Below are positions 29,211 to 58,349 of a DNA stretch of 64,000 nt, in pieces. Where the stretch lies: contig CAVSZB010000007.1 in NCBI GenBank assembly GCA_963732385.1, positions 96,001 to 160,000 on the forward strand. Reading direction: 5' to 3'. The DNA comes from an uncultured bacterium. Its GTDB lineage: Bacteria; Krumholzibacteriota; Krumholzibacteriia; LZORAL124-64-63. Each line of letters begins with the position of its first letter. Positions within the stretch are counted from its first letter, which is position 1. Made by a program: the position numbers and the translations under genes. The notes below the pieces were generated by a model, which did not search any database, was not told the origin of the DNA, and saw only the letters and a program-made list of their open reading frames with translations.

Positions 29211-29645
29211 ATGCCAGGGATGGAGCCCGGTGCGCCGAGAGAGTCGATCCGGCGGCACGTCGCGTTCGAGGTCCTCGACGGTGGTGTGGATTTCGAAATT
29301 CGCGAACGTGGCGCGACCGTCTGGATCACTCTCTCGGGCGTGCTCGACGCGGAGCGTCTCGCCCCGCTGATGCGGCGGGTCGTGCCGCTGCTGCACCGTC
29401 GCGGCCGCCGGGTCGTGCTCGACGGTCGCCGCCTCATGCACCTCGACTATCGGTGCGTGGCTCAGCTCCTGGCCTGGAGCGACGGTCTGCGCGCATTCGA
29501 CCACCAGCTCCTGTTGTACGGCTGGAATGCCTATCTGCGCGCCATCCTCCGCGTGGAGGACTGGGGTGGACGACTCAGCCCCGGCCCCGTGAGTCTGCCG
29601 GCAGGTCATGCCAATGTCGCTGGCGGCCCGGAGTCGGCGCGATGA
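29211..29645 (+). CDS. STAS-domain protein
   Basis: ITLSGVLD...RVVLDG..L.HLDYRCV..L pattern of a STAS fold. SD GGAGG; ATGA overlap with the rsmH start. Confidence 0.75.
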   Translation: MPGMEPGAPRESIRRHVAFEVLDGGVDFEIRERGATVWITLSGVLDAERLAPLMRRVVPLLHRRGRRVVLDGRRLMHLDYRCVAQLLAWSDGLRAFDHQLLLYGWNAYLRAILRVEDWGGRLSPGPVSLPAGHANVAGGPESAR

Positions 29646-40981: not shown

Positions 40982-42364
40982 GTGTTCCGGAACACCCGGC
41001 ACATCCACATGGTCGCGATCGGCGGGGTGGGGATGAGCGGCATCGCCGAGATCCTGCTCAACCTCGGTTTTCGCGTCAGCGGCAGCGACCTGCGCCTGTC
41101 GCCCGCGACGGAACGGCTGGCGCGGCTCGGGGCGACGATCCACATCGGTCATCGGCCGGAGCAGATCATCGGCGCCGACGTCGTCGTCTACTCGTCCGCC
41201 GTCACGGCTGCCAATCCGGAAATCGTCGAGGCCCGTCGCAGGCGCGTCCCGGTCGTGCGGCGCGCCGACATGCTGGCCGAGTTGATGCGCCTGAAGTACG
41301 GGATCGCGATCGCCGGCTCCCACGGCAAGACCACCACCACTTCCCTGGTGGCTGCCGTGCTTGCCGAGGGGTCGCTCGATCCGACCGTGCTGGTGGGCGG
41401 CCGGGCGCTGGCCACGGGTCGCAACGCCGTGCTGGGCAGCGGCGAGTATCTCGTCGCCGAGGCTGATGAGAGCGACGGCACGTTCCTCCGTCTGACGCCG
41501 ACCATTGCCGTCGTGACCAACATCGATCTCGAGCACGTCGATCACTACCCCGATCTCCCCGCGCTGCGCGCGGCGTTCGCGGAGTTCCTGGCCCGGGTGC
41601 CGTTCTACGGTACCTGCGTGCTCTGTCTGGACGACCCGGAGGTGCGCGGCCTGGTGGCGCGTCTCGATCGCAAGGTGATCACCTACGGGCTGTCCGCCGA
41701 GGCGCAGGTGCGGGCCGTTCCGGCCGCGTCCACTCCCGACGGTCCCGCGGTCGCTACGGTCTTCGCCCACGGCTGCGAACTGGGGCCGATCGAGTTGCGA
41801 CTGCGCGGGCGGCACAACCTGGTCAACGCGCTGGCGGCGGTGGCGGTCGGGATGGAACTGGGCGTCTCCTTCGGGCAGATCGCCGCCGGACTGGCCCGGT
41901 TCGCCGGCGTGGACCGGCGCTTCGAGGAGCGCGGGGAGCACGGCGGTGTGCGCGTGGTAGACGATTACGGTCACCACCCCACCGAGATCGGCGCCACGCT
42001 GCAGGTGGCGTGCGATACCGGTCGGCGGGTGGCCGTGCTGTTCCAGCCGCATCGCTACACGCGCACGGCGCGTTTCCGGCACGAATTCGCCGATGCTCTC
42101 GCCGTGGCCGACACGGTCGCTCTGCTGCCGGTCTACGCCGCCAGCGAGGAGCCGCAGCCTGGCGTGGACAGCGGGCTGATCGTGAGCGGGCTGCGGGACA
42201 AGGGCCTGACCGACGCTGTGCAGGTGGAGGATCTGGACGAAGTGCGGTCGTGGCTTGACGCCGCGGTACGGCCCGGCGATTTGCTGCTGACGCTCGGCGC
42301 GGGCGATATCGGACGCCTGGTCGACCCGATCTGCGGCCATCTGGATACGAGGAGACTGCCATGA
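40982..42364 (+). CDS. murC: UDP-MurNAc:L-Ala ligase MurC
   Basis: IGGVGMSGIA, GSHGKTTTTS, EADESDG, DDYGHHPTEI, FQPHRYTRT. Confidence 0.97.
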   Translation: MFRNTRHIHMVAIGGVGMSGIAEILLNLGFRVSGSDLRLSPATERLARLGATIHIGHRPEQIIGADVVVYSSAVTAANPEIVEARRRRVPVVRRADMLAELMRLKYGIAIAGSHGKTTTTSLVAAVLAEGSLDPTVLVGGRALATGRNAVLGSGEYLVAEADESDGTFLRLTPTIAVVTNIDLEHVDHYPDLPALRAAFAEFLARVPFYGTCVLCLDDPEVRGLVARLDRKVITYGLSAEAQVRAVPAASTPDGPAVATVFAHGCELGPIELRLRGRHNLVNALAAVAVGMELGVSFGQIAAGLARFAGVDRRFEERGEHGGVRVVDDYGHHPTEIGATLQVACDTGRRVAVLFQPHRYTRTARFRHEFADALAVADTVALLPVYAASEEPQPGVDSGLIVSGLRDKGLTDAVQVEDLDEVRSWLDAAVRPGDLLLTLGAGDIGRLVDPICGHLDTRRLP

Positions 42365-43308
42365 GCTGCAACCCGCTCACCCCGGGAGAGCGCGGCCCGG
42401 CTGCCGGTTCCGCGTTGGCGTCGACGCGACGGGGACGCCGGCCGCGCCGCCGGCTGCTCTGGCTGCTGTCGCTGGCGTTCATTGCCGTGGCGGGAGTGCT
42501 CGGGGGGGCCCGCTGGCTGCTGACGGCCGAGCGGTTCGCGGTTGTGCGGATCGAGACCGGCCCCTATCGCTTCAGTGATCCGGCCCGGCTCGAGGCGCAA
42601 CTGGGCACCGCACTCGGCAGCAACATCTGGACCGGCGCCGGCGCGCGCCGGCTGTTGGTCGATCTGCCCGCTCTGCCGTGGGTGCGCCGGGCCCGCGTGG
42701 CGCGAGAACTGCCCGGCACGCTGCGTGTCGAGATCGAGGAGTGGCGTCCGCTGCTGGAGGTGGCGCCCGATTCAAGCGTCGGCGCGGGGCCAGGCGAATT
42801 TGTCCTGCTTGCCGATGGGCGCGTGGAGCCGTTCCCCGGCCATCTTCCGCGGCCCGATCTGCCGCTGCTGGTCGGCGCGCGGTTGCAGACGCGGCCCGAC
42901 GGCGGCTGGCGGCTCGTGCCGGGCCAGGCCGACAGCGTGCTCGCGCTCGCGGCGGCCGTGGCCGAGACCGGGATTGAGGGGTGTGCGCCGGTGGATTTCA
43001 TTCTGACCGGCGACGAGGGGCTGAGCCTGGTGCTGCAGGGGGGGCGGGCCCGCCTCCTGGTCGGTGGCGAGGACTATGCCGGTCGCCTGCGCCGGTTCCT
43101 CGCGCTGCGCAACCGACTGTCGGATGGCGCCGTGGTCGACCTCCGGTTCGAACGGCGACTTTTCGTGGATGACCAGAACACTGCCGAACCGTTGCCTGCG
43201 GGCGACGGCGCCGGAGCAGCAGAGGAATCGGCGGTCCGGCGCGGCCGGGCCACGGTCGCGGCGCCTGCGGGCCGCGCCGCACGCGCACGCGCCCGAGCGC
43301 GCGTCTAG
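42361..43308 (+). CDS. ftsQ: Cell division protein FtsQ/DivIB
   Basis: Single TM, POTRA-like PWVRRARVARELPGTLRVEIEE, C-terminal VDLRF; lies before ftsA. Confidence 0.85.
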   Translation: MSCNPLTPGERGPAAGSALASTRRGRRPRRRLLWLLSLAFIAVAGVLGGARWLLTAERFAVVRIETGPYRFSDPARLEAQLGTALGSNIWTGAGARRLLVDLPALPWVRRARVARELPGTLRVEIEEWRPLLEVAPDSSVGAGPGEFVLLADGRVEPFPGHLPRPDLPLLVGARLQTRPDGGWRLVPGQADSVLALAAAVAETGIEGCAPVDFILTGDEGLSLVLQGGRARLLVGGEDYAGRLRRFLALRNRLSDGAVVDLRFERRLFVDDQNTAEPLPAGDGAGAAEESAVRRGRATVAAPAGRAARARARARV

Positions 43309-43329
43309 ACGACCGGGAAGGAGCCTCGG

Positions 43330-44592
43330 ATGAGCAACGGACAACTGCTGGTCGCCTGCGACTTCGGAACCTCCAATTTCCGTACGCTGGTCAGCACGGT
43401 GGGCGCGGACGGGCGCGTCGAGGTGCTCGGCGCGGCCTGCGTGGCGGCTGCCGGTTTCCGCGACGGCGATTTCGTCGATCTGCAGGCCGGGAGCCACGCG
43501 ATCGAACGGGCGGTGGGGGCGGCCGAGGCGGAAGCCGACGTCGACATCGCCGCTTTCTTCTACAACATCGCCGGCAGTCACCTGCGATCCTTCTCGGCGC
43601 GGGGACAGATCCAGCTCGGGCCGGTCCCGCGCGCCATCACCGCGGTCGACATGGACTCCGCGCTGAACCGTGCGCGCACCCTGGAGATCCCATTCGACCA
43701 GTGCATCCTCGCCGCCAACCCGGTCGATTGGGCGGTGGACCGGGTCCACGGCATCGTCGATCCGCGCGGCCGGCTTGGCAGCCAGCTCCAGGTCGATGCC
43801 CACCTCGTGACCGCCTCCGGAACCGTCGTGCGCAACGTGGAGCACGCCATCAAGACGGCCGGCTATGAGGTCGCCGGCCGTGCAGTGGACAGCCTGGCCA
43901 CGGCCGAGGCTCTGCTGCAGACGCAGGAGCTCGATGAGGGGGTTTTGCTGATCGATGTCGGGGGACGTTCCACGCAGTGGGCGCTCTTCCGCGGCGGACG
44001 GCTGGCCGGCAACGGCGCCGTGCCGTGGGGCGGCGCCCATCTGACCGCCGACCTCGCGCATGGCCTGCGCGTCGGCCTCCAGGAGGCGGAGCAGGTGAAG
44101 AGGCAGTGCGGCGTCGTGCTGCGTAGTCTCGTGGATGAAGCCGACCCTTTGGCGCTGTTCGAGGAGGAGCGCCCGGCTCCGTCGCCCGGCCTGCTCGCCG
44201 CGATCCTCGAACCGCGTCTCGAGGAGATATTCGCGCTGGTGAAGAACGATCTGCGCGACCCGGGTCTGCTTTCCGGGCTGGGTCGCGGCGTGGTGCTGAC
44301 CGGCGGCGGCAGTCGTTGCCGCGGCGCCGCCGCGCTCTGCGAGGAGGTGTTCGGGCTGCCGGCCGTCTGTCGCTATCTGCCGCCGGGAATGGCAGGGAAC
44401 GAGCGGCTGGGCGACGGCCAGTGGGCCACCGCGCTCGGCCTGACCCTCTGGGCGATGCGCGGCGAGGTGCAGACCCGGGCAGCCGTTGCGTCGGCGGGCG
44501 GCGGGGAGACGTCGGTCCCCCTCTGGCACCGGATGCGCAGCCGGCTGGGACGGGCCTCCCGGCCCGGGGGGGGGGCGGCGCCGGGGCGTTGA
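43330..44592 (+). CDS. ftsA: Cell division protein FtsA
   Basis: DFGTS, IAGSH, LIDVGG, GG..LT.DL, VVLTGGGS, ATALGL, C-terminal amphipathic helix. Confidence 0.92.
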   Translation: MSNGQLLVACDFGTSNFRTLVSTVGADGRVEVLGAACVAAAGFRDGDFVDLQAGSHAIERAVGAAEAEADVDIAAFFYNIAGSHLRSFSARGQIQLGPVPRAITAVDMDSALNRARTLEIPFDQCILAANPVDWAVDRVHGIVDPRGRLGSQLQVDAHLVTASGTVVRNVEHAIKTAGYEVAGRAVDSLATAEALLQTQELDEGVLLIDVGGRSTQWALFRGGRLAGNGAVPWGGAHLTADLAHGLRVGLQEAEQVKRQCGVVLRSLVDEADPLALFEEERPAPSPGLLAAILEPRLEEIFALVKNDLRDPGLLSGLGRGVVLTGGGSRCRGAAALCEEVFGLPAVCRYLPPGMAGNERLGDGQWATALGLTLWAMRGEVQTRAAVASAGGGETSVPLWHRMRSRLGRASRPGGGAAPGR

Positions 44593-52507: not shown

Positions 52508-52894
52508 ATGCGTCGACTGGCTCTTGATGATATGCCGTGCGGTCTGACCGTCGCGCGCGCAGTCCGCAACGCGGCCAACACCGTCCTGCTCGAGCGGGGC
52601 GTGGTGCTGGATGCGCGGATGATCGGCTGCCTGCGCTCGCTCGGGGTCAGCCACGTCTACGTCCATCCCGATCGCAGCGCGGACCCCCCCGACGCTCTGG
52701 AGCAGGCGGTCCGCGAGGAGGTGACCCGGCGCCAGGAGCGCCGTTTCGGCGATGTCTCCGGTGATCCGTATCGGGCGGCCCTCATGGCCGCCACGATCGA
52801 GATCAAGGTCGGCGAGCGACTTGCGGCAGGGGTCTTCCCGCCGGCGGATCGCGAGCCGGTCGCCGCGCCATCCGGGGGGGGGGCCGATGCGTGA
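52508..52894 (+). CDS. Small protein resembling the N-terminal accessory domain of HD-GYP/HDOD proteins
   Basis: G.TVAR.V.N....VLL..G..L....I..L...GV..VYV pattern; overlaps the HDOD start. Confidence 0.6.
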   Translation: MRRLALDDMPCGLTVARAVRNAANTVLLERGVVLDARMIGCLRSLGVSHVYVHPDRSADPPDALEQAVREEVTRRQERRFGDVSGDPYRAALMAATIEIKVGERLAAGVFPPADREPVAAPSGGGADA

Positions 52895-53801
52895 TCGCGT
52901 GCACGATCTGACCCGACGGATCCACGACCTGCCGACCCTGCCGGCCGTCTATCAGCAGGTCGAGGCGCTGACGCGCGATCCCTCATCGTCGTCCGCGCAG
53001 CTGGCGCAACTCCTCTCCCGGGACCCGGTGCTCACCGCGCGGCTGCTGAGGGTGGTCAATTCGGCGCGTTACGCGCTGACCGAACGGGTCACGACCGTCT
53101 CCCGGGCCATCAGCATCCTCGGGCACCGCACTGTCCGGGACACCGTGCTGGTGACGTCGGTCCTGAGCCTGCTGCCGAATGAGCCGCGGCGCCGGGATCT
53201 CGCGGAAGCGTTCTGGCGCCACGCCATCGCCGTCGGCTCGGCCGCGCAGGTCCTGGGGGCTCCGAACGGGGGACCGGCGGCGGAGGAATTCTTCACCGCC
53301 GGCCTGCTGCACGATATGGGCAAGCTGATCTGGCTGCGCTTCTTCCCCGATGATCTGCTGGCCATGCACGATTCGGCCGCGTCCGCCGGCATCACGCTGC
53401 TCGAGGCCGAACTGGCGATGGCGGGCACGACCCACGTCCGACTCGGGCGGATCCTGGCGCGTCGCTGGCGGCTGCCGGAGATTTACCAGGATGTGATCGG
53501 GTTCCACCACGAGGTGGGGGGCGGGACCGGCAACGGGTCGATCTGCTTCGTGGTGCAGCTGGCCGATCTTGTTGCACATGCGCTGGAACTTGGCTGGCCG
53601 TCGCCGCTGGGGTTGCCGGCCGTGCAGCCGGAGGCGTGGCTCTCCCTGCGCCTCGATCCGGAGGTCCTGCCGGACATGCTCGAGGCGGTCCAGGCGGAAT
53701 TTCAGGAGAATATCGAACTGTTCCCGCTATTCACGAACGACGGCGCCGCCGAGGCGTCGGGAGGCCGGGAGGCGACGCCGGCGCCGGCGCTGGCGGGTTG
53801 A
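52887..53801 (+). CDS. HDOD domain protein
   Basis: LPTLP, DPVLTARLLRVVNS, FWRH, AGLLHDMGK, H..LG..LA.RW.LP, HH. Confidence 0.9.
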   Translation: MRDRVHDLTRRIHDLPTLPAVYQQVEALTRDPSSSSAQLAQLLSRDPVLTARLLRVVNSARYALTERVTTVSRAISILGHRTVRDTVLVTSVLSLLPNEPRRRDLAEAFWRHAIAVGSAAQVLGAPNGGPAAEEFFTAGLLHDMGKLIWLRFFPDDLLAMHDSAASAGITLLEAELAMAGTTHVRLGRILARRWRLPEIYQDVIGFHHEVGGGTGNGSICFVVQLADLVAHALELGWPSPLGLPAVQPEAWLSLRLDPEVLPDMLEAVQAEFQENIELFPLFTNDGAAEASGGREATPAPALAG

Positions 53802-53858
53802 CGATGATCCGGCGCGTGCGCCGGTGAAGACATCGCTGAGGCGAGGGAGGTTCTTTCC

Positions 53859-54494
53859 ATGATCACGACCTGTACCGGATGTCAGACCCGTTACCGCCTG
53901 GACGACGGCCGAGTGCCGCGGCGCCGGATCCGGGTGCGCTGCCCGCGTTGCGAGGCGGTCTTCGCCCTGGACGGGACGCAGGCGGCGGCGCAGGTCGCGC
54001 CGGCCGAGGACGGGCTCGTCATCGAGCGCTCCGGAGGGGGTCTGTTCAGCGCTCCGCCGGCCTCCGCGGCGGCAGTGGAGATGCCACGCCCCGTTCCTCA
54101 TCCGCAATCGTTCCCGACTCCTGCGCCGGCCGCGGCTCCGGCGGGCGCTTTCGCGACCGCGCGGACGACGACGGTCTCGACCGCCGCGGTGGCCGAGCCG
54201 GCGGCTCCGGCCGCCGATCCCGAGGCTCCCGGCGATCCGGGCGGCCGACCGCGCCGCGATCGCGACAAGGCCCGCCGCCTGGCGCGCGCCCTGGTGTCCG
54301 ACATCCTGGTCTACAACCGCGAATCGCGCGACCGGGCCATGAAAGAGGGCAACCTCATCCAGGCGCTCGGTCCTGAAATCAAGAAGTCGTGGGAGTTGTA
54401 CAAGGAGCGGGTCACCCCCGAGGTGGCCAACAGCACTTCGCATTTCCGGGACGCCCTGAACGAGATCCTGGCCGAGGGGCAGAAAGTCTTCTAG
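53859..54494 (+). CDS. Zinc-ribbon (MJ0042-type) protein with Pro/Ala linker and RomX-like C-terminal domain
   Basis: CTGC...VRCPRC N-terminus; C-terminal ARRLARALVSDILVYN...EI.KS.ELYKERV...F.DALNEIL. SD GGAGG. Confidence 0.8.
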   Translation: MITTCTGCQTRYRLDDGRVPRRRIRVRCPRCEAVFALDGTQAAAQVAPAEDGLVIERSGGGLFSAPPASAAAVEMPRPVPHPQSFPTPAPAAAPAGAFATARTTTVSTAAVAEPAAPAADPEAPGDPGGRPRRDRDKARRLARALVSDILVYNRESRDRAMKEGNLIQALGPEIKKSWELYKERVTPEVANSTSHFRDALNEILAEGQKVF

Positions 54495-54514
54495 GACGGA
54501 AGGAGCAGGCCGGG

Positions 54515-55384
54515 ATGGATCAATCCGCCCCGGAAGCCCTCACCTTCGGGCTGTCCACGCGCGCGTTGGCGGAGCTCAAGGGGCTCGCGCCGGCCGAGGG
54601 GGACCGTCTGCGTCTGGCGTTGGCCGGCGAGGACCCGGTGCTGGCGCCCGATGATCCGGGTGAGCGCCTCTGTGCGCTGCTGGTTGCTGCCGAGTGCGGC
54701 GGGGAAATCCCGCCGGCGCTGGTGGCCGCCATACGCGAACACCTCGACGGCGGTCGCTATCTGATCGCCCTTTCGAGTCGCGGCGGCGCCGCGACCGGCG
54801 GCGGCGGTGAGTGCGTCGCGGGGACTGACGGAGCGATTGCGAACGGAGAAACGTTCGGTCCGGCCGGCGGGGAGACCGGCGCCTTCCGTGAGTTCCTGGA
54901 TCGCTGGCGCTTCGAACGTATTTTCCGCACTGCACCGCAACTGGCCGGCTATGGACGGGCCACGCTCGAACTGACCATTCCGAACGAAGAGGCCCTCATC
55001 CCGGGACTGAGTCATACCGTGGGGCTGCTGCTGCGGGAGTTCGGATTCGCCCAGGACGACTGGATGTCCACCGTGCCTCTGGTGCTTGACGAGGTGCTGA
55101 CCAACGCCATGCGCCACGGCAACCAGGGGGTGCCGGGAAAATGCGTGCACGTCAGTGTCGTCATCGACGCCGAGATGCTGCGCGTGACCGTCACCGATGA
55201 GGGAGAGGGCTTCCAGCGCGAAGGCGTGGCCGATCCCCGCCAGGGTGACCGCATCTGGCGCACGGGTGGGCGGGGACTGTTTCTGATCGAGCAGTTGATG
55301 GACGAAGTGTCCTACCGCGACGAGGGGCGCACCGTCGATCTCGTCAAGCACAATCGTGCCGTCAGCTCCCCTTGCCTCGGCTGA
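54515..55384 (+). CDS. RsbW/SpoIIAB-like anti-sigma Ser/Thr kinase (HATPase_c_2) with N-terminal extension
   Basis: EVLTNAMRHGN, DEGEGF, GGRGLFLI..LMDEV.Y; SD AAGGAG. Confidence 0.85.
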   Translation: MDQSAPEALTFGLSTRALAELKGLAPAEGDRLRLALAGEDPVLAPDDPGERLCALLVAAECGGEIPPALVAAIREHLDGGRYLIALSSRGGAATGGGGECVAGTDGAIANGETFGPAGGETGAFREFLDRWRFERIFRTAPQLAGYGRATLELTIPNEEALIPGLSHTVGLLLREFGFAQDDWMSTVPLVLDEVLTNAMRHGNQGVPGKCVHVSVVIDAEMLRVTVTDEGEGFQREGVADPRQGDRIWRTGGRGLFLIEQLMDEVSYRDEGRTVDLVKHNRAVSSPCLG

Positions 55385-55802
55385 TATCCGTCAGGATGGC
55401 GTCGATGTGCTGACGGATGCGGGTGTTCTGATCCGGTTCGAAGAGCGCCTTCCGCACCCGCCCGTCGGAATCCTTCTTGAGGTACCGCAGCGATTGCAGG
55501 TCGGTCATGGGCATCAGGATGTCCTTGGAGACCTTGACCTCGATGGTCTCCCCCTCCTGGTTGCAGCCCGGATTGTTGAACGGGTGCATGCCCATGCCCC
55601 AGCCGTGGACGATCATCGAGCAGACCAGAGCGCGGAATGTGTTCTGACCCTGGACAGTCTCGAGATCGAGGTTGTCGCTCAGGCGGTCCATCACGCCGTC
55701 CACCATGAGCACCAGCTTCTCGACGACCGTGGGGTCGATCTCCATCTGCAGCAGCCGGGTGAACATCGCTTTGAGAATCCGGTCCGTATTGGTGACGGTC
55801 AT
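55362..55802 (-). CDS. Hypothetical protein (146 aa)
   Basis: GGAG 8 nt upstream of ATG, G/C-ending codons, globular-type composition, upstream sigma54 motif. No family recognised. Confidence 0.7.
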   Translation of the reverse strand: MTVTNTDRILKAMFTRLLQMEIDPTVVEKLVLMVDGVMDRLSDNLDLETVQGQNTFRALVCSMIVHGWGMGMHPFNNPGCNQEGETIEVKVSKDILMPMTDLQSLRYLKKDSDGRVRKALFEPDQNTRIRQHIDAILTDISRGKGS

Positions 55803-55941
55803 GCCATTCGCTCCGAGGTCCGGGGGGTGGGGGGCGCCGCGAACGCGCGGCGGTTCGTCTTTCAGTATCGCGCCCGGCGGCCCACGCTTGAGTCGTCTTC
55901 ACGGCGACCGCGAGCGGCCCGCGCCGGGCATCGTTGCTGTA

Positions 55942-55958
55942 TGCAAATTGCCCGCCAA
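55942..55958 (-). promoter_or_regulatory. sigma54 (-24/-12) promoter for the 146-aa gene
   Basis: Minus strand TTGGCGGGCAATTTGCA (GG-N10-GC, TTGCA). Confidence 0.6.
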
Positions 55959-55997
55959 ATGGGAACAAGGCCACGGACAATTTCGCAAACGGCGCAA

Positions 55998-56010
55998 TAT
56001 CAGTCGGTTA
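55998..56010 (+). promoter_or_regulatory. IHF-binding site
   Basis: TATCAGTCGGTTA matches WATCARNNNNTTR, in an AT-rich patch between two sigma54 motifs. Confidence 0.55.
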
Positions 56011-56024
56011 ATGATGCTGGAGGA

Positions 56025-56040
56025 AGGCACGGCGCTTGCT
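56025..56040 (+). promoter_or_regulatory. sigma54 (-24/-12) promoter for the MglA-like gene
   Basis: AGGCACGGCGCTTGCT (GGCAC-N5-TTGCT), 30 nt before ATG 56071. Confidence 0.7.
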
Positions 56041-56070
56041 TTACGATTCGGTGATGAAAGGCCCCTGCAC

Positions 56071-56958
56071 ATGATGGACAGCCACTCGACCACCGCCGTC
56101 TCCTCACCGGCCCGCACCTGCCGCGTCCTCTTCTTTGGACCGTCCGGGAGTGGCAAGACGGCGAATCTAATCCAGATCGCCAGTTGCGTGCCGCAGGAGT
56201 TCCGGGTGCCGGTCGCGGCGACGGGGGGGGGCGAGCGTTTCAGCTTCCGCGTGGATGCCGGCGATCTCGGTCCCTGGATCGTCGAGGCGGTGGTTGCCGA
56301 TGCCGCGGCGGTGGGCGTCCCCGTGGCCGCCGGGCGCGGCTTCCCCTTCGACGGTGTGGTTTTCGTGGCCGACTCCAGCGCCGACCGTCTCGATCTGAAC
56401 CTGAGCGCGATCGAGACGTTGAAGACCGATCTCGAGGCGGGCGGGTACGATCTCACCTCTCTGCCGATGGTGATCCAGTACAACCACCAGGACGCTCCGG
56501 GGCGCCTGCCGGTGGATCGGCTCGAGAGCCTGCTCAATCCCTGGGGCATGCCGTCGTTTCCGGCCATCGCGGCCCAGGGGGTGGGGGTACGCGAGACTCT
56601 GCGCGCCGTGCTCGGGCTGACGATGCGTCAGCTCGATCGCGCCGCCGCCGCGCCCGCTGAAACCGACGGGCCCGGATCCGGTTGTGACCATGCCCCGGCC
56701 GCGATGCCGGCGCCAGCGTCCGCATCGCCGGCGCCAGCGGCAGCGTTTTCGCGGGCGGTCTCGGTGCCGGCGCCCGCGGTGGGCGATGACCGGGTGCTCC
56801 GCATCGAACCGGAGGAGCGGGGCGAGACCATGTTCGCCACCCGCCGTCCTCCCATCGTCGTCCCGGTGCGGGTGCCGCGCTCGTTGCTGGAGCGCTACGG
56901 CACGGTGCGGATCGTGCTCGAGTTGGAAGTGGACGGTCGCGGCCCCGGCGTGGATTGA
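56071..56958 (+). CDS. Degenerate MglA-like small GTPase with C-terminal extension
   Basis: VLFFGPSGSGKTANL (P-loop), DGVVFVADS, LPMVIQYNHQD, FPAIA.QGVGVRETL follow the MglA pattern; G3/TVPGQ is absent. Confidence 0.75.
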   Translation: MMDSHSTTAVSSPARTCRVLFFGPSGSGKTANLIQIASCVPQEFRVPVAATGGGERFSFRVDAGDLGPWIVEAVVADAAAVGVPVAAGRGFPFDGVVFVADSSADRLDLNLSAIETLKTDLEAGGYDLTSLPMVIQYNHQDAPGRLPVDRLESLLNPWGMPSFPAIAAQGVGVRETLRAVLGLTMRQLDRAAAAPAETDGPGSGCDHAPAAMPAPASASPAPAAAFSRAVSVPAPAVGDDRVLRIEPEERGETMFATRRPPIVVPVRVPRSLLERYGTVRIVLELEVDGRGPGVD

Positions 56959-57001
56959 ACCGTCCGCCAGCGGCGCTTGCAGGCCGCCGAAGGTGTCGCG
57001 G

Positions 57002-57030
57002 TTGACCCGCCGTTCTGTCTCGCTTATCCT
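57002..57030 (+). promoter_or_regulatory. sigma70-type promoter, probably giving a leaderless mRNA
   Basis: TTGACC-N17-TATCCT, 7 nt before ATG 57038; no SD. Confidence 0.6.
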
Positions 57031-57037
57031 CTCCCAC

Positions 57038-57925
57038 ATGACAGATTTACGCCACACAGCCCTGCCCGCCGACGGCGATCAGGCCGCGCACACCGGAACC
57101 GAATGGTTCGCACTCGGCCAGCGCGCCGAGGGGGACGGCGATCTGGACGCCGGCAGGCGGGCCTACGCGGCCGCGGTCGCGCAGGATCCGCGCCAGCCGG
57201 AATGGCACTACCGGCTCGGCTGTGTCAGCCGTAAGCTCGGTCTGCTTGCTGAGGCGGTGGTCGCCTTTCGACGGGCCGCCGAACTGGCGCCGGAGGAGGC
57301 GCGTCACCTGTTGAATCTGGGCACTGTGTTCGACCGTCTCGGCCAGCGGGAAGAGGCGGTGCGCAGCTACCAGGCGGCGCTCTCGCGCGACCCGCGCAAC
57401 GCCGAGGCGCACAACAATCTCGGCGCCATCCACGCGGAGGCGGGGCGTTCGGAAGAGGCGGTGCGTTCGTTCGAGGCGGCCATCGCGGCGCGGCCCGATG
57501 CGCAGGGGTGGCAGAATCTCGGCCTGGTGCATTTCCATCAGGACGATTTCGAGCGGGCGCTGCACTGCTTCGAACAGGTGCTGCTGCTCGCCCCCGACTC
57601 CGCGCTGGGGCACTACTACGCCGGTCTGTGCCAGATGCGCAAGGGGCTCTACCGCGAGGCGACGCTGCGTTTCCGCCGCGCCTTCGAACTCGATGCGCGT
57701 CTCGGTCGCGCCCAGTTTCACGCCGGGGCCTGTCTGCACAAGGTGGGGCGTTTCGACGAGGCGCTGCTGGCGCTGCGGCGGGCTCTGGAATCGTTTCCGG
57801 AGGATCCGCGGCTGCACTACCAGCTCGGCCTCACCTGCGATGCGCTGCTGCTGCATCAGGAGGCGCGCCAGCACTATCGCCACGCCCGCGCCGTCAATGC
57901 CGGCGGCTTCGGCGGTACGCTCTGA
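57038..57925 (+). CDS. Cytoplasmic tetratricopeptide repeat protein
   Basis: About eight consecutive TPRs (e.g. AEAHNNLGAIHAEAGRSEEAVRSFEAAI). Confidence 0.9.
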   Translation: MTDLRHTALPADGDQAAHTGTEWFALGQRAEGDGDLDAGRRAYAAAVAQDPRQPEWHYRLGCVSRKLGLLAEAVVAFRRAAELAPEEARHLLNLGTVFDRLGQREEAVRSYQAALSRDPRNAEAHNNLGAIHAEAGRSEEAVRSFEAAIAARPDAQGWQNLGLVHFHQDDFERALHCFEQVLLLAPDSALGHYYAGLCQMRKGLYREATLRFRRAFELDARLGRAQFHAGACLHKVGRFDEALLALRRALESFPEDPRLHYQLGLTCDALLLHQEARQHYRHARAVNAGGFGGTL

Positions 57926-57974
57926 CCCCGCGGGGGCAGGCCGGCACGGGACCTGGATTGGGAAAACGGGGGGA

Positions 57975-58349
57975 TCAGGCGATCGTCGCGTCGAGGCAGC
58001 GACTGACAGTTTCGCGCACCCGATCCGGATCGAACGGCTTCACCAGGAAATCGCGCGCGCCGGCCTTGATCGCCTCGAGCACCTTCTGTTTCTGACCGAG
58101 AGCGCTGATCATGATCACGTTCGCGTCCGGGTCGGCCGCGACGATCGCCTTGAGCGCGCCGATGCCGTCCAGACGGGGCATGGTGATGTCGAGCGCGACG
58201 AGATCGGGCTTCAATTCACGGTACATGTGCACCGCCTGCTCGCCGTCGCGCGCTTCGCCCGCCACGGTCAGTCCCATCTCGCAGACGATCTCCCTGAGCA
58301 TCGCGCGCATGAATTCAGCGTCGTCCACGATGAGAACTGTGTTGCCCAT
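57975..58349 (-). CDS. CheY-like single-domain response regulator
   Basis: LIVDDAEFMR.ML, LDITMP.LDG, MISALGQ, DFLVKPF (Bacillus/Thermotoga CheY-type pattern). Confidence 0.9.
   Translation of the reverse strand: MGNTVLIVDDAEFMRAMLREIVCEMGLTVAGEARDGEQAVHMYRELKPDLVALDITMPRLDGIGALKAIVAADPDANVIMISALGQKQKVLEAIKAGARDFLVKPFDPDRVRETVSRCLDATIA

Follow-up and report, generated by a model that had tools for sequence, protein, structure and literature searches.

A gene neighbourhood at positions 52508 to 58349 of the window, as the whole analysed stretch of 64,000 nucleotides from a bacterium of the Krumholzibacteriota (contig CAVSZB010000007.1) is called here, encodes a protein of the MglA family (MglA2) and a protein in which a zinc ribbon (ZnR) is fused to a RomX domain (ZnR-RomX). 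With a probability of roughly 55%, both form the core of a sigma54-controlled MglA/RomX module which lacks RomR, regulates type IVa pili and is accompanied by passenger genes. Since MglA2 vanishes wherever type IV pili vanish, MglA2 together with ZnR-RomX is probably a RomR-free variant of the pilus-polarity switch of Myxococcus. An earlier note on this DNA had described the complete 6 kb as a polarity and signalling island in a probably non-myxobacterial genome. Its observation was confirmed and its interpretation is partly supported; close homologues indeed bear Candidatus Krumholzibacteria names.

Loss of MglA together with type IV pili

Co-loss was analysed in 143 genomes with a completeness of at least 88%. 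PilM was detected in none of the 23 genomes without intact MglA (16 with a single weak match, seven with no match) and in 115 of the 120 others; eight unlisted negatives in these PilM and MglA counts were derived from tallies. The suggested link to pili is supported by this co-loss. Flagellin was retained in all 23 genomes. Within family f5 (f1 is the family of the source genome, G000; other G numbers are relatives and L numbers are loci), MglA2 is the only MglA found and MglB was found in 0/11 genomes. Here MglA2 tracks PilM, which is present in 7/7 genomes with MglA2 and in 0/4 genomes without it. Three f5 genomes, G055, G060 and G069 (L044, L048 and L133), apparently possess the tailed MglA2 alone, with PilM kept and neither the canonical MglA (MglA1) nor MglB found.

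Gene order was compared in 59 loci from nine families, which were picked around matches to MglA2 or to an orphan protein on long contigs, with five duplicate or near-duplicate rows excluded. In the window, the seven open reading frames previously named were all present, and an eighth was found at the left edge:

52508-52894, plus strand: DUF3391-like open reading frame (E 2.7e-5, below the cut-off); passenger
52887-53801, plus strand: HDOD protein (PF08668, E 1.6e-57); passenger
53859-54494, plus strand: ZnR-RomX, zinc ribbon (PF13717, E 1.2e-12) plus RomX domain; core
54515-55384, plus strand: RsbW-like protein (PF13581, E 2.1e-24), probable pseudo-receiver plus HATPase_c_2; ancestral accessory
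55362-55802, minus strand: orphan protein of 146 amino acids, no Pfam match; passenger
55998-56010, plus strand: IHF consensus; the exact consensus is not conserved
56025-56040, plus strand: predicted sigma54 (-24/-12) promoter motif for mglA2(-TPR); core
56074-56958 (alternative start 56071), plus strand: MglA2, match to MglA in the PDB, no Pfam match; core
57038-57925, plus strand: protein of 295 amino acids consisting only of tetratricopeptide repeats (TPR); likely passenger or shared-function gene
57975-58349, minus strand: single-domain CheY-like receiver; probably coupled to the core

The order ZnR-RomX, RsbW-like gene (where present), orphan, mglA2 and TPR gene is conserved throughout the phylum. 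The expected co-conservation in relatives was found for the RomX fusion, which flanks the orphan in 58/59 loci, and for MglA2 (48/59 loci); ZnR-RomX and mglA2 lie within about 1-6 kb of each other in every locus showing both. The TPR gene follows the mglA2 position in 57/59 loci, and the RsbW-like gene occurs in 25/59 (2/31 in f1, 23/28 elsewhere). An HDOD gene stands at this position in 3/59 loci, and the minus-strand CheY gene is present in 28/31 f1 loci and 1/28 non-f1 loci. Fourteen further loci agree with this gene order, and all examined metagenome loci with enough downstream DNA showed the same arrangement including the orphan; no locus outside the phylum was obtained among the 80 metagenome loci kept out of 562, of which the 37 of at least 3.5 kb were examined.

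In f2, f3, f5 and f7, a different receiver on the plus strand often follows mglA2. It belongs to a distinct single-domain family (e.g. L045:7853-8218 and L048:9881-10234) which is lost with mglA2 in f5, and a similar receiver is encoded in the source genome (G000:C7:998128-998499).

The loci themselves show which genes change when pili are absent. In the four PilM-negative f5 genomes, mglA2 and the receiver are gone, while the orphan, the TPR gene, the RsbW domain and ZnR-RomX are kept. In nine f1 loci without mglA2, the mean identity to the window protein was 44% for RomX (76% in mglA2-bearing loci) and 37% for CheY (62%), whereas the values for the orphan (68% vs 67%) and the TPR protein (53% vs 51%) differed little and recG and a sigma factor were unchanged. 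MglA2, its promoter, MglA1, MglB and PilM are thus lost or decay together, and RomX and CheY decay alongside; this is a correlation. On a RecG tree of 55 genomes, the PilM label has to change three times or more, so that few events underlie the pattern.

In pilus-less f1 genera, the canonical MglA has no R53, T54 and Q82 and lies on long terminal branches, and MglB is mostly undetectable (L109-L114, e.g. G009:C6, G011:C233, G014:C4, G029:C1, G036:C1 and G013:C7). Judged by these motifs, this appears to be a second, independent degeneration of MglA. Furthermore, the PilM match is split into two pieces within one frame in many f1 genomes, but not in G000, G001, G008 and G016, which suggests an internal insertion in PilM of most f1 genera.

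The promoter motif is a further conserved part of the core. With a score of at least 7/8 as criterion, a sigma54 motif was found in 44/49 upstream regions of mglA2 (22/22 in f1, 0/2 in f5), while shuffled sequences gave about 0.15 expected in all. No such motif was found upstream of the orphan (0/74), the TPR gene (0/72), CheY (0/44) and recG (0/56), nor in the loci with mglA2 deleted (0/10). The motif shows the -24/-12 consensus GG-N10-GC and the genome encodes RpoN, in agreement with a predicted promoter. A second sigma54 site precedes ZnR-RomX in 30/37 non-f1 loci. Of the two motifs previously reported in the middle of the locus, the sigma54 motif therefore stands; the IHF motif is present in the window but not conserved, as the exact consensus occurs in 2/49 upstream regions of mglA2. 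It is rare (23 sites genome-wide), and HU/IHF-family genes are encoded in the source genome.

Properties of MglA2 and ZnR-RomX

MglA2 was matched to MglA of M. xanthus in the PDB by sequence search (E 4e-24), and its confident AlphaFold model matches the MglA fold (best E 1.3e-17, TM score 0.82 over the target). Sequence and fold thus both place it in the MglA family, as had been proposed. The protein consists of a G domain (amino acids 10-192), a low-complexity linker and a conserved C-terminal strand-helix-strand motif (amino acids about 259-288). This motif is present in 48/49 MglA2 copies (a count which omits G055) and occurs once in the source genome. It has no credible match in Pfam or PDB, and it may resemble swapped hairpins of the AbrB type.

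MglA possesses an intrinsic arginine finger (R53) and the switch I residue T54; together with Q82 and others they form its catalytic and Mg-binding set (PMC3199381). All 27 MglA2 proteins from outside f1 possess K25, T26, R53, T54, G81, Q82 and the NKxD motif as well as the long tail. In f1, T54 and Q82 are each present in 0/22 copies, T26 is replaced by Arg in 19/22 and the G4 Lys is left in 2/22. The designation of the window MglA2 as degenerate is correct in so far as R53, T54, G81, Q82 and the G4 Lys are lost (Glu and Arg occupy the positions of R53 and T54, and the G4 motif reads NHQD), but it does not extend to K25 and T26 of the P-loop (GPSGSGKT) and the G4 Asp, which are retained. Switch II of the degenerate proteins has an insertion in the alignment, yet no PGQ motif. 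With its P-loop and G4 Asp kept, the window MglA2 may still bind nucleotide, but GTP hydrolysis is unlikely, and the f1 proteins are candidate pseudo-GTPases as predicted from their motifs.

Reading frames are open in 22/22 f1 copies, and the ratio of nonsynonymous to synonymous substitutions (dN/dS) of the degenerate G domain was 0.09-0.23 in 5/5 pairs, as estimated by a simple counting method in GC-rich DNA, indicating purifying selection. In a quick tree, whose long branches make the placement of the degenerate clade unreliable, these copies form one group on a long stem branch, and they share a newly fixed motif with the consensus LPVDRLESLLNPWG. The single group on a long stem, the new conserved stretch, the kept tail motif and the low dN/dS argue that the degeneration in f1 reflects selection and not decay.

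The second core protein, ZnR-RomX, comprises an MJ0042-type zinc ribbon (amino acids 1-35), a Pro/Ala linker and a RomX domain (amino acids 134-206), which confirms the proposed fusion in one chain. The RomX domain, the only one in the source genome, is homologous to the RomX three-helix bundle (PDB 8ZNA; E 1e-10 in a single-sequence search, 1.9e-15 with a profile), and the zinc ribbon matches that of GltJ/AgmX (7ZOK, profile E 3.7e-7). In M. xanthus, R11, R14 and D19 of RomX bind MglA-GTP, and a Leu-Arg pair and Trp87 bind the RomR receiver (10.1101/2024.02.20.581209; residues 75/76 in the numbering of the paper are 76/77 in the PDB chain). The window protein retains R11, R14 and D19 in helix 1, and R14 and D19 are each retained in 58/59 RomX loci. 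The RomR-binding Leu is present in 0/59 RomX domains, and the residues tallied at the position after it include no Arg; in the window, Ala-Glu replaces the Leu-Arg of helix 3, and the chain ends five residues later, with no Trp87. Look-alike zinc-ribbon proteins are listed in the Atlas for Gemmatimonadota and Eisenbacteria.

The exchanges of T26 to Arg in MglA2 and of R11 to Met in RomX each occur in 19/22 f1 loci, and G000, G008 and G016 retain both ancestral residues and the RsbW-like gene. This pairing possibly goes back to one branch and would then be weak evidence of coevolution.

The earlier note had also pointed to the absence of an adjacent MglB. No roadblock gene was seen next to mglA2 in the compared loci, but MglB is not missing from the system: a canonical mglB-mglA pair (MglA1) is located at C7:55857-57008 of the source genome, after dnaX-ybaB-recR (names read from the sequences), a context described for deltaproteobacteria (PMC3983030). 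This MglB, the only roadblock match in the genome, is encoded about 96 kb from MglA2 and possesses a C-terminal helix. Pilus genes were also found: a type IVa cluster at C7:251,800-269,000 encodes PilB, PilT, PilC, PilD and PilMNO-secretin together with pilin-like proteins, a sensor kinase and a sigma54 activator. A search of the source genome with one GltJ model yielded no gliding gene of that type above the cut-off.

Proposed mechanism, alternatives and known systems

We infer the following mechanism, including every binding step, the polar localisation and the role of CheY. ZnR-RomX would couple MglB and MglA-GTP without RomR, because the MglA-binding face of RomX is kept, the zinc ribbon of GltJ binds the C-terminal helix of MglB and raises the efficiency of this GTPase-activating protein (PMC11135422), and RomR itself sequesters MglB (10.1101/2024.10.31.621274). 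MglA2 would provide a second input, in non-f1 families as a second cycling GTPase. In f1, a single long stem branch may have seen the loss of catalysis and of gamma-phosphate sensing, followed by the fixation of LPVDRLESLLNPWG as a new surface motif. MglA2 could now act as a nucleotide-insensitive scaffold or decoy, anchored by the conserved C-terminal motif, which shifts the place or time of pilus activation by the MglA1 switch. Phosphorylation signals probably enter through CheY, and the HDOD protein, the open reading frame upstream of it, the orphan and probably the TPR protein would be neighbours with other roles. Only tentatively do we propose the complete picture, in which two MglA proteins and a single-chain ZnR-RomX, replacing RomR and tethering MglB to MglA-GTP, set pilus polarity and the f1 MglA2, without a change of locus or of sigma54 promoter, has turned from a cycling GTPase into a pseudo-GTPase scaffold that is under selection and offers a new binding surface. 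If true, the orthologues would form a natural series that shows a bacterial Ras-like pseudoenzyme before and after its origin.

Several observations weigh against a RomR-less pilus module of MglA2 and ZnR-RomX. The independent losses are few (two families with perhaps 2-5 losses, and kin are not independent), and the f1 genomes concerned have lost MglA1 and MglB as well, so that the signal of MglA2 is inseparable from that of MglA1 there. Motifs were checked in 6/16 genomes with a degenerate MglA1, and the other 10 were judged by E-value. All 22 degenerate copies carry Ser or Ala in place of E115, which is the third acidic residue on the MglA side of the modelled interface with RomX, and R11 of RomX is Met in 19/22 MglA2-bearing f1 loci. 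No sigma54 site precedes ZnR-RomX in f1 (0/32 loci), and therefore both core genes are not co-regulated in this family. ZnR-RomX with its sigma54 site persists in 4/4 pilus-less f5 loci; since f5 keeps the zinc ribbon although no MglB was found there, binding of MglB cannot be its sole role. Together with the replacement of R11 in most f1 loci, this retention in the absence of MglB and pili argues against the module in its simplest form. Finally, the absence of RomR is based on two weak tests: none of the about 55 receiver proteins listed in the source genome carries a RomR-like tail, and a five-residue RomR-C motif was no commoner than its reversed control in 51 genomes. A predicted complex of the RomX domain and the MglA2 G domain scored 0.00 and was counted neither way.

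Some of these points would fit two functions that merely share a neighbourhood, with ZnR-RomX serving only MglA1 and MglB, and MglA2 acting alone like SofG, its tail positioning the pilus ATPases without contact to RomX. SofG is an MglB-independent orphan which acts on the positioning of PilB and PilT (PMC4316618), mglA2 is preceded by a sigma54 promoter of its own, a gene on the opposite strand lies between it and ZnR-RomX, and in f3, f4 and f8 both are 2-5 kb of other genes apart. The loss of E115 from the degenerate copies points in the same direction. We nevertheless regard this separation as fairly unlikely, as f5 keeps RomX where MglA2 is the only MglA found and both genes stay within about 1-6 kb wherever both are shown. 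It is less probable still, though conceivable, that the RsbW-like protein substitutes for RomR, so that RomX bridges MglA-GTP to its pseudo-receiver and a partner-switching kinase acts on transcription and not directly on pili. RomX of M. xanthus binds a receiver domain (10.1101/2024.02.20.581209), and the RsbW-like gene follows ZnR-RomX directly in 23/28 non-f1 loci. Its N-terminus resembles a receiver, although the match is modest (HHalign 62.6%, E 7e-5), and seems to be lost together with mglA2 in pilus-less f5 loci; but the gene is absent from 29/31 f1 loci where RomX persists, and the known receiver-binding residues of RomX are not retained.

That the degenerate MglA2 is a decaying relic among unrelated genes accumulated behind recG is very unlikely. 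Gene content is variable, mglA2 has been deleted in several lineages, and the HDOD, orphan and TPR genes behave independently. For mglA2 itself this reading is already largely refuted by the open frames, the low dN/dS, the new motif, the tail motif and the sigma54 site in all 22 f1 copies, and MglA1 copies in true decay stand apart by their long terminal branches. Hardly credible, finally, is the whole island, including the HDOD protein and an SgmX-like TPR effector, as a single polarity system with a possible tie to flagella or chemotaxis, even though the genes are adjacent in the window and in flagellated f6 genomes and a TPR gene follows the mglA2 position so regularly. HDOD tracks flagellin while MglA tracks PilM, the orphan and the TPR gene are unaffected by the loss of mglA2 and unchanged in pilus-less genomes, the RsbW-like gene is missing from nearly all f1 loci, and the 23/23 MglA-less genomes keep flagellin. 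The unity of the 6 kb as suggested before is thus not supported.

The RomR-less module shares with the MglA/MglB/RomR/RomX system of M. xanthus the MglB-MglA pair after recR, the MglA-binding residues of RomX and the co-occurrence with type IVa pili, which is also reported for RomR with MglA and MglB (PMC3441718). It differs in that no RomR was found, a zinc ribbon is fused to RomX, which has no RomR-binding residues, a second, tailed MglA stands under sigma54 control and no GltJ-type gene exceeded the cut-off. The locus would work like the MglA/MglB/RomRX module without being a strict member, as no RomR and no receiver-binding face of RomX were found. The former label of RomR/RomX as guanine nucleotide exchange factor is dated, as newer work describes RomRX as an effector of MglA-GTP (10.1101/2024.10.31.621274).

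The TPR protein of the window cannot be equated with SgmX. Judged by the description of SgmX in PMC7519303, no SgmX-like effector is encoded in the locus: SgmX (Bd2492) is a two-block TPR protein of 1060 amino acids (353 in Bdellovibrio) which is encoded beside DUF490/TamAB-like genes and acts with MglA, whereas the TPR protein of the window has 295 amino acids and other neighbours and is kept when mglA2 and PilM are lost. An association of zinc ribbon and RomX is already in print for receiver-containing proteins (10.1101/2024.02.20.581209). Such fusions (e.g. Desulfuromonas A0A2N6E6P0) likewise combine a zinc ribbon and a RomX-like bundle in one chain, but the window protein has no receiver and its gene lies beside a second MglA. 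GltJ (AgmX) belongs to the same zinc-ribbon family, and a linker places its ribbon by an MglA-GTP-binding element (PMC11135422, which also cautions that the zinc ribbon ligands vary outside Myxococcales); unlike GltJ, the window protein is soluble, with no GYF or membrane part, and would bind MglA via its RomX domain.

Orphan MglA proteins are known (PMC4316618). SofG of M. xanthus and the MglA of Bdellovibrio also have no adjacent MglB and are tied to type IV pili, and Ser at position 21 is common to the window MglA2 and the Bdellovibrio protein (PMC3983030). Both keep GTP-binding or catalytic residues, however, whereas the f1 MglA2 is tailed and devoid of R53, T54 and Q82. PseudoGTPases are a recognised class; members such as AAGAB share the G-domain fold, the loss of G-motif residues and probably protein binding (PMC12490416). 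MglA2 differs from AAGAB in that it derives from bacterial MglA and that sister families keep intact orthologues at this locus.

No description of the locus was found in the literature on MglA and pili of Krumholzibacteriota, MglAB of Gemmatimonadota, RomX with zinc, or pseudoGTPases; the supplement of the RomX preprint may list such fusions. The same may hold for Szadkowski 2019, which is reportedly the original RomX paper. New in the present analysis are the joint loss with pili, the conservation of the sigma54 promoters and the division into core and passenger genes. Detailed work on MglA polarity covers only a few organisms, and the roles assigned to RomRX and MglB are being revised. In this context, a RomR-free fusion of a GltJ-type ribbon with RomX offers a minimal soluble test of the coupling of MglB and MglA-GTP, and paired intact and degenerate orthologues of MglA2 make the evolution of a pseudo-GTPase testable with purified proteins.

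Neighbouring genes and further observations

The orphan protein was identified in 198/208 genomes of the phylum (43-99% identity), nearly always as a single copy, and persists even where the whole Mgl system is gone. It is unchanged in pilus-less genomes and independent of MglA and pili. Neither a Pfam match nor a usable Atlas match was obtained, and 32 related clusters only were found among 1.84 billion representatives. Its model is of moderate quality (pLDDT 75, pTM 0.44), and a fold search with residues 1-72 yielded nothing clear, the best score being Z 5.9 with unrelated helical parts. The gene is a candidate phylum signature gene and would be a near-universal marker without known fold. 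The TPR gene, likewise unchanged in pilus-less genomes, is a likely passenger or shared-function gene.

CheY, which is probably coupled to the MglA2/pilus core, was found with 72% identity in G008, a genome with PilM but no CheW or flagellin match. Flagella or chemotaxis as partner of the Mgl core were considered and rejected, as the 23 MglA-less genomes keep flagellin and G008 lacks these matches. HDOD homologues and flagellin run parallel family by family (92 and 88 of 143 genomes), and the DUF3391-like open reading frame looks fused to HDOD in two relatives, G006 and G016.

The RsbW-like protein possesses a HATPase_c_2 domain with visible N, G1 and G2-like boxes, and its score against the NCBIfam RsbW equivalog was 45 bits (cut-off 145 bits). 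Its N-terminus is a probable pseudo-receiver. No STAS gene is located within the locus. A STAS gene (PF13466) at 29220-29645 of the window (plus strand), between mraZ-like and rsmH-like genes heading the division cluster, is a possible partner of this kinase. Further along this cluster (42361-44592), murB and ddl were not called between murC and ftsQ/ftsA-like genes by a crude gene caller.

Contigs from RNA libraries of relatives with about 90-95% identity span most of the stretch; as a single study supplied them, word shares are small and DNA may be present, they show neither transcription nor a start site. The source genome also encodes flagellins and two CheW-domain matches. It contains 34 intergenic sigma54-like sites, some of which precede a pilin gene, pilM and flagellin. 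Such sites were seen before a Rho-like gene (G000:C5:161977-163224), a RadA-like gene (C5:119282-120814) and a flagellin gene (C7:479483-480313), all three named from their N-terminal sequence only; this suggests a broad sigma54 regulon. Additionally, a fragmented second rpoN-like sequence, which scored below the family cut-off, is located at G000:C5:426274-427293.

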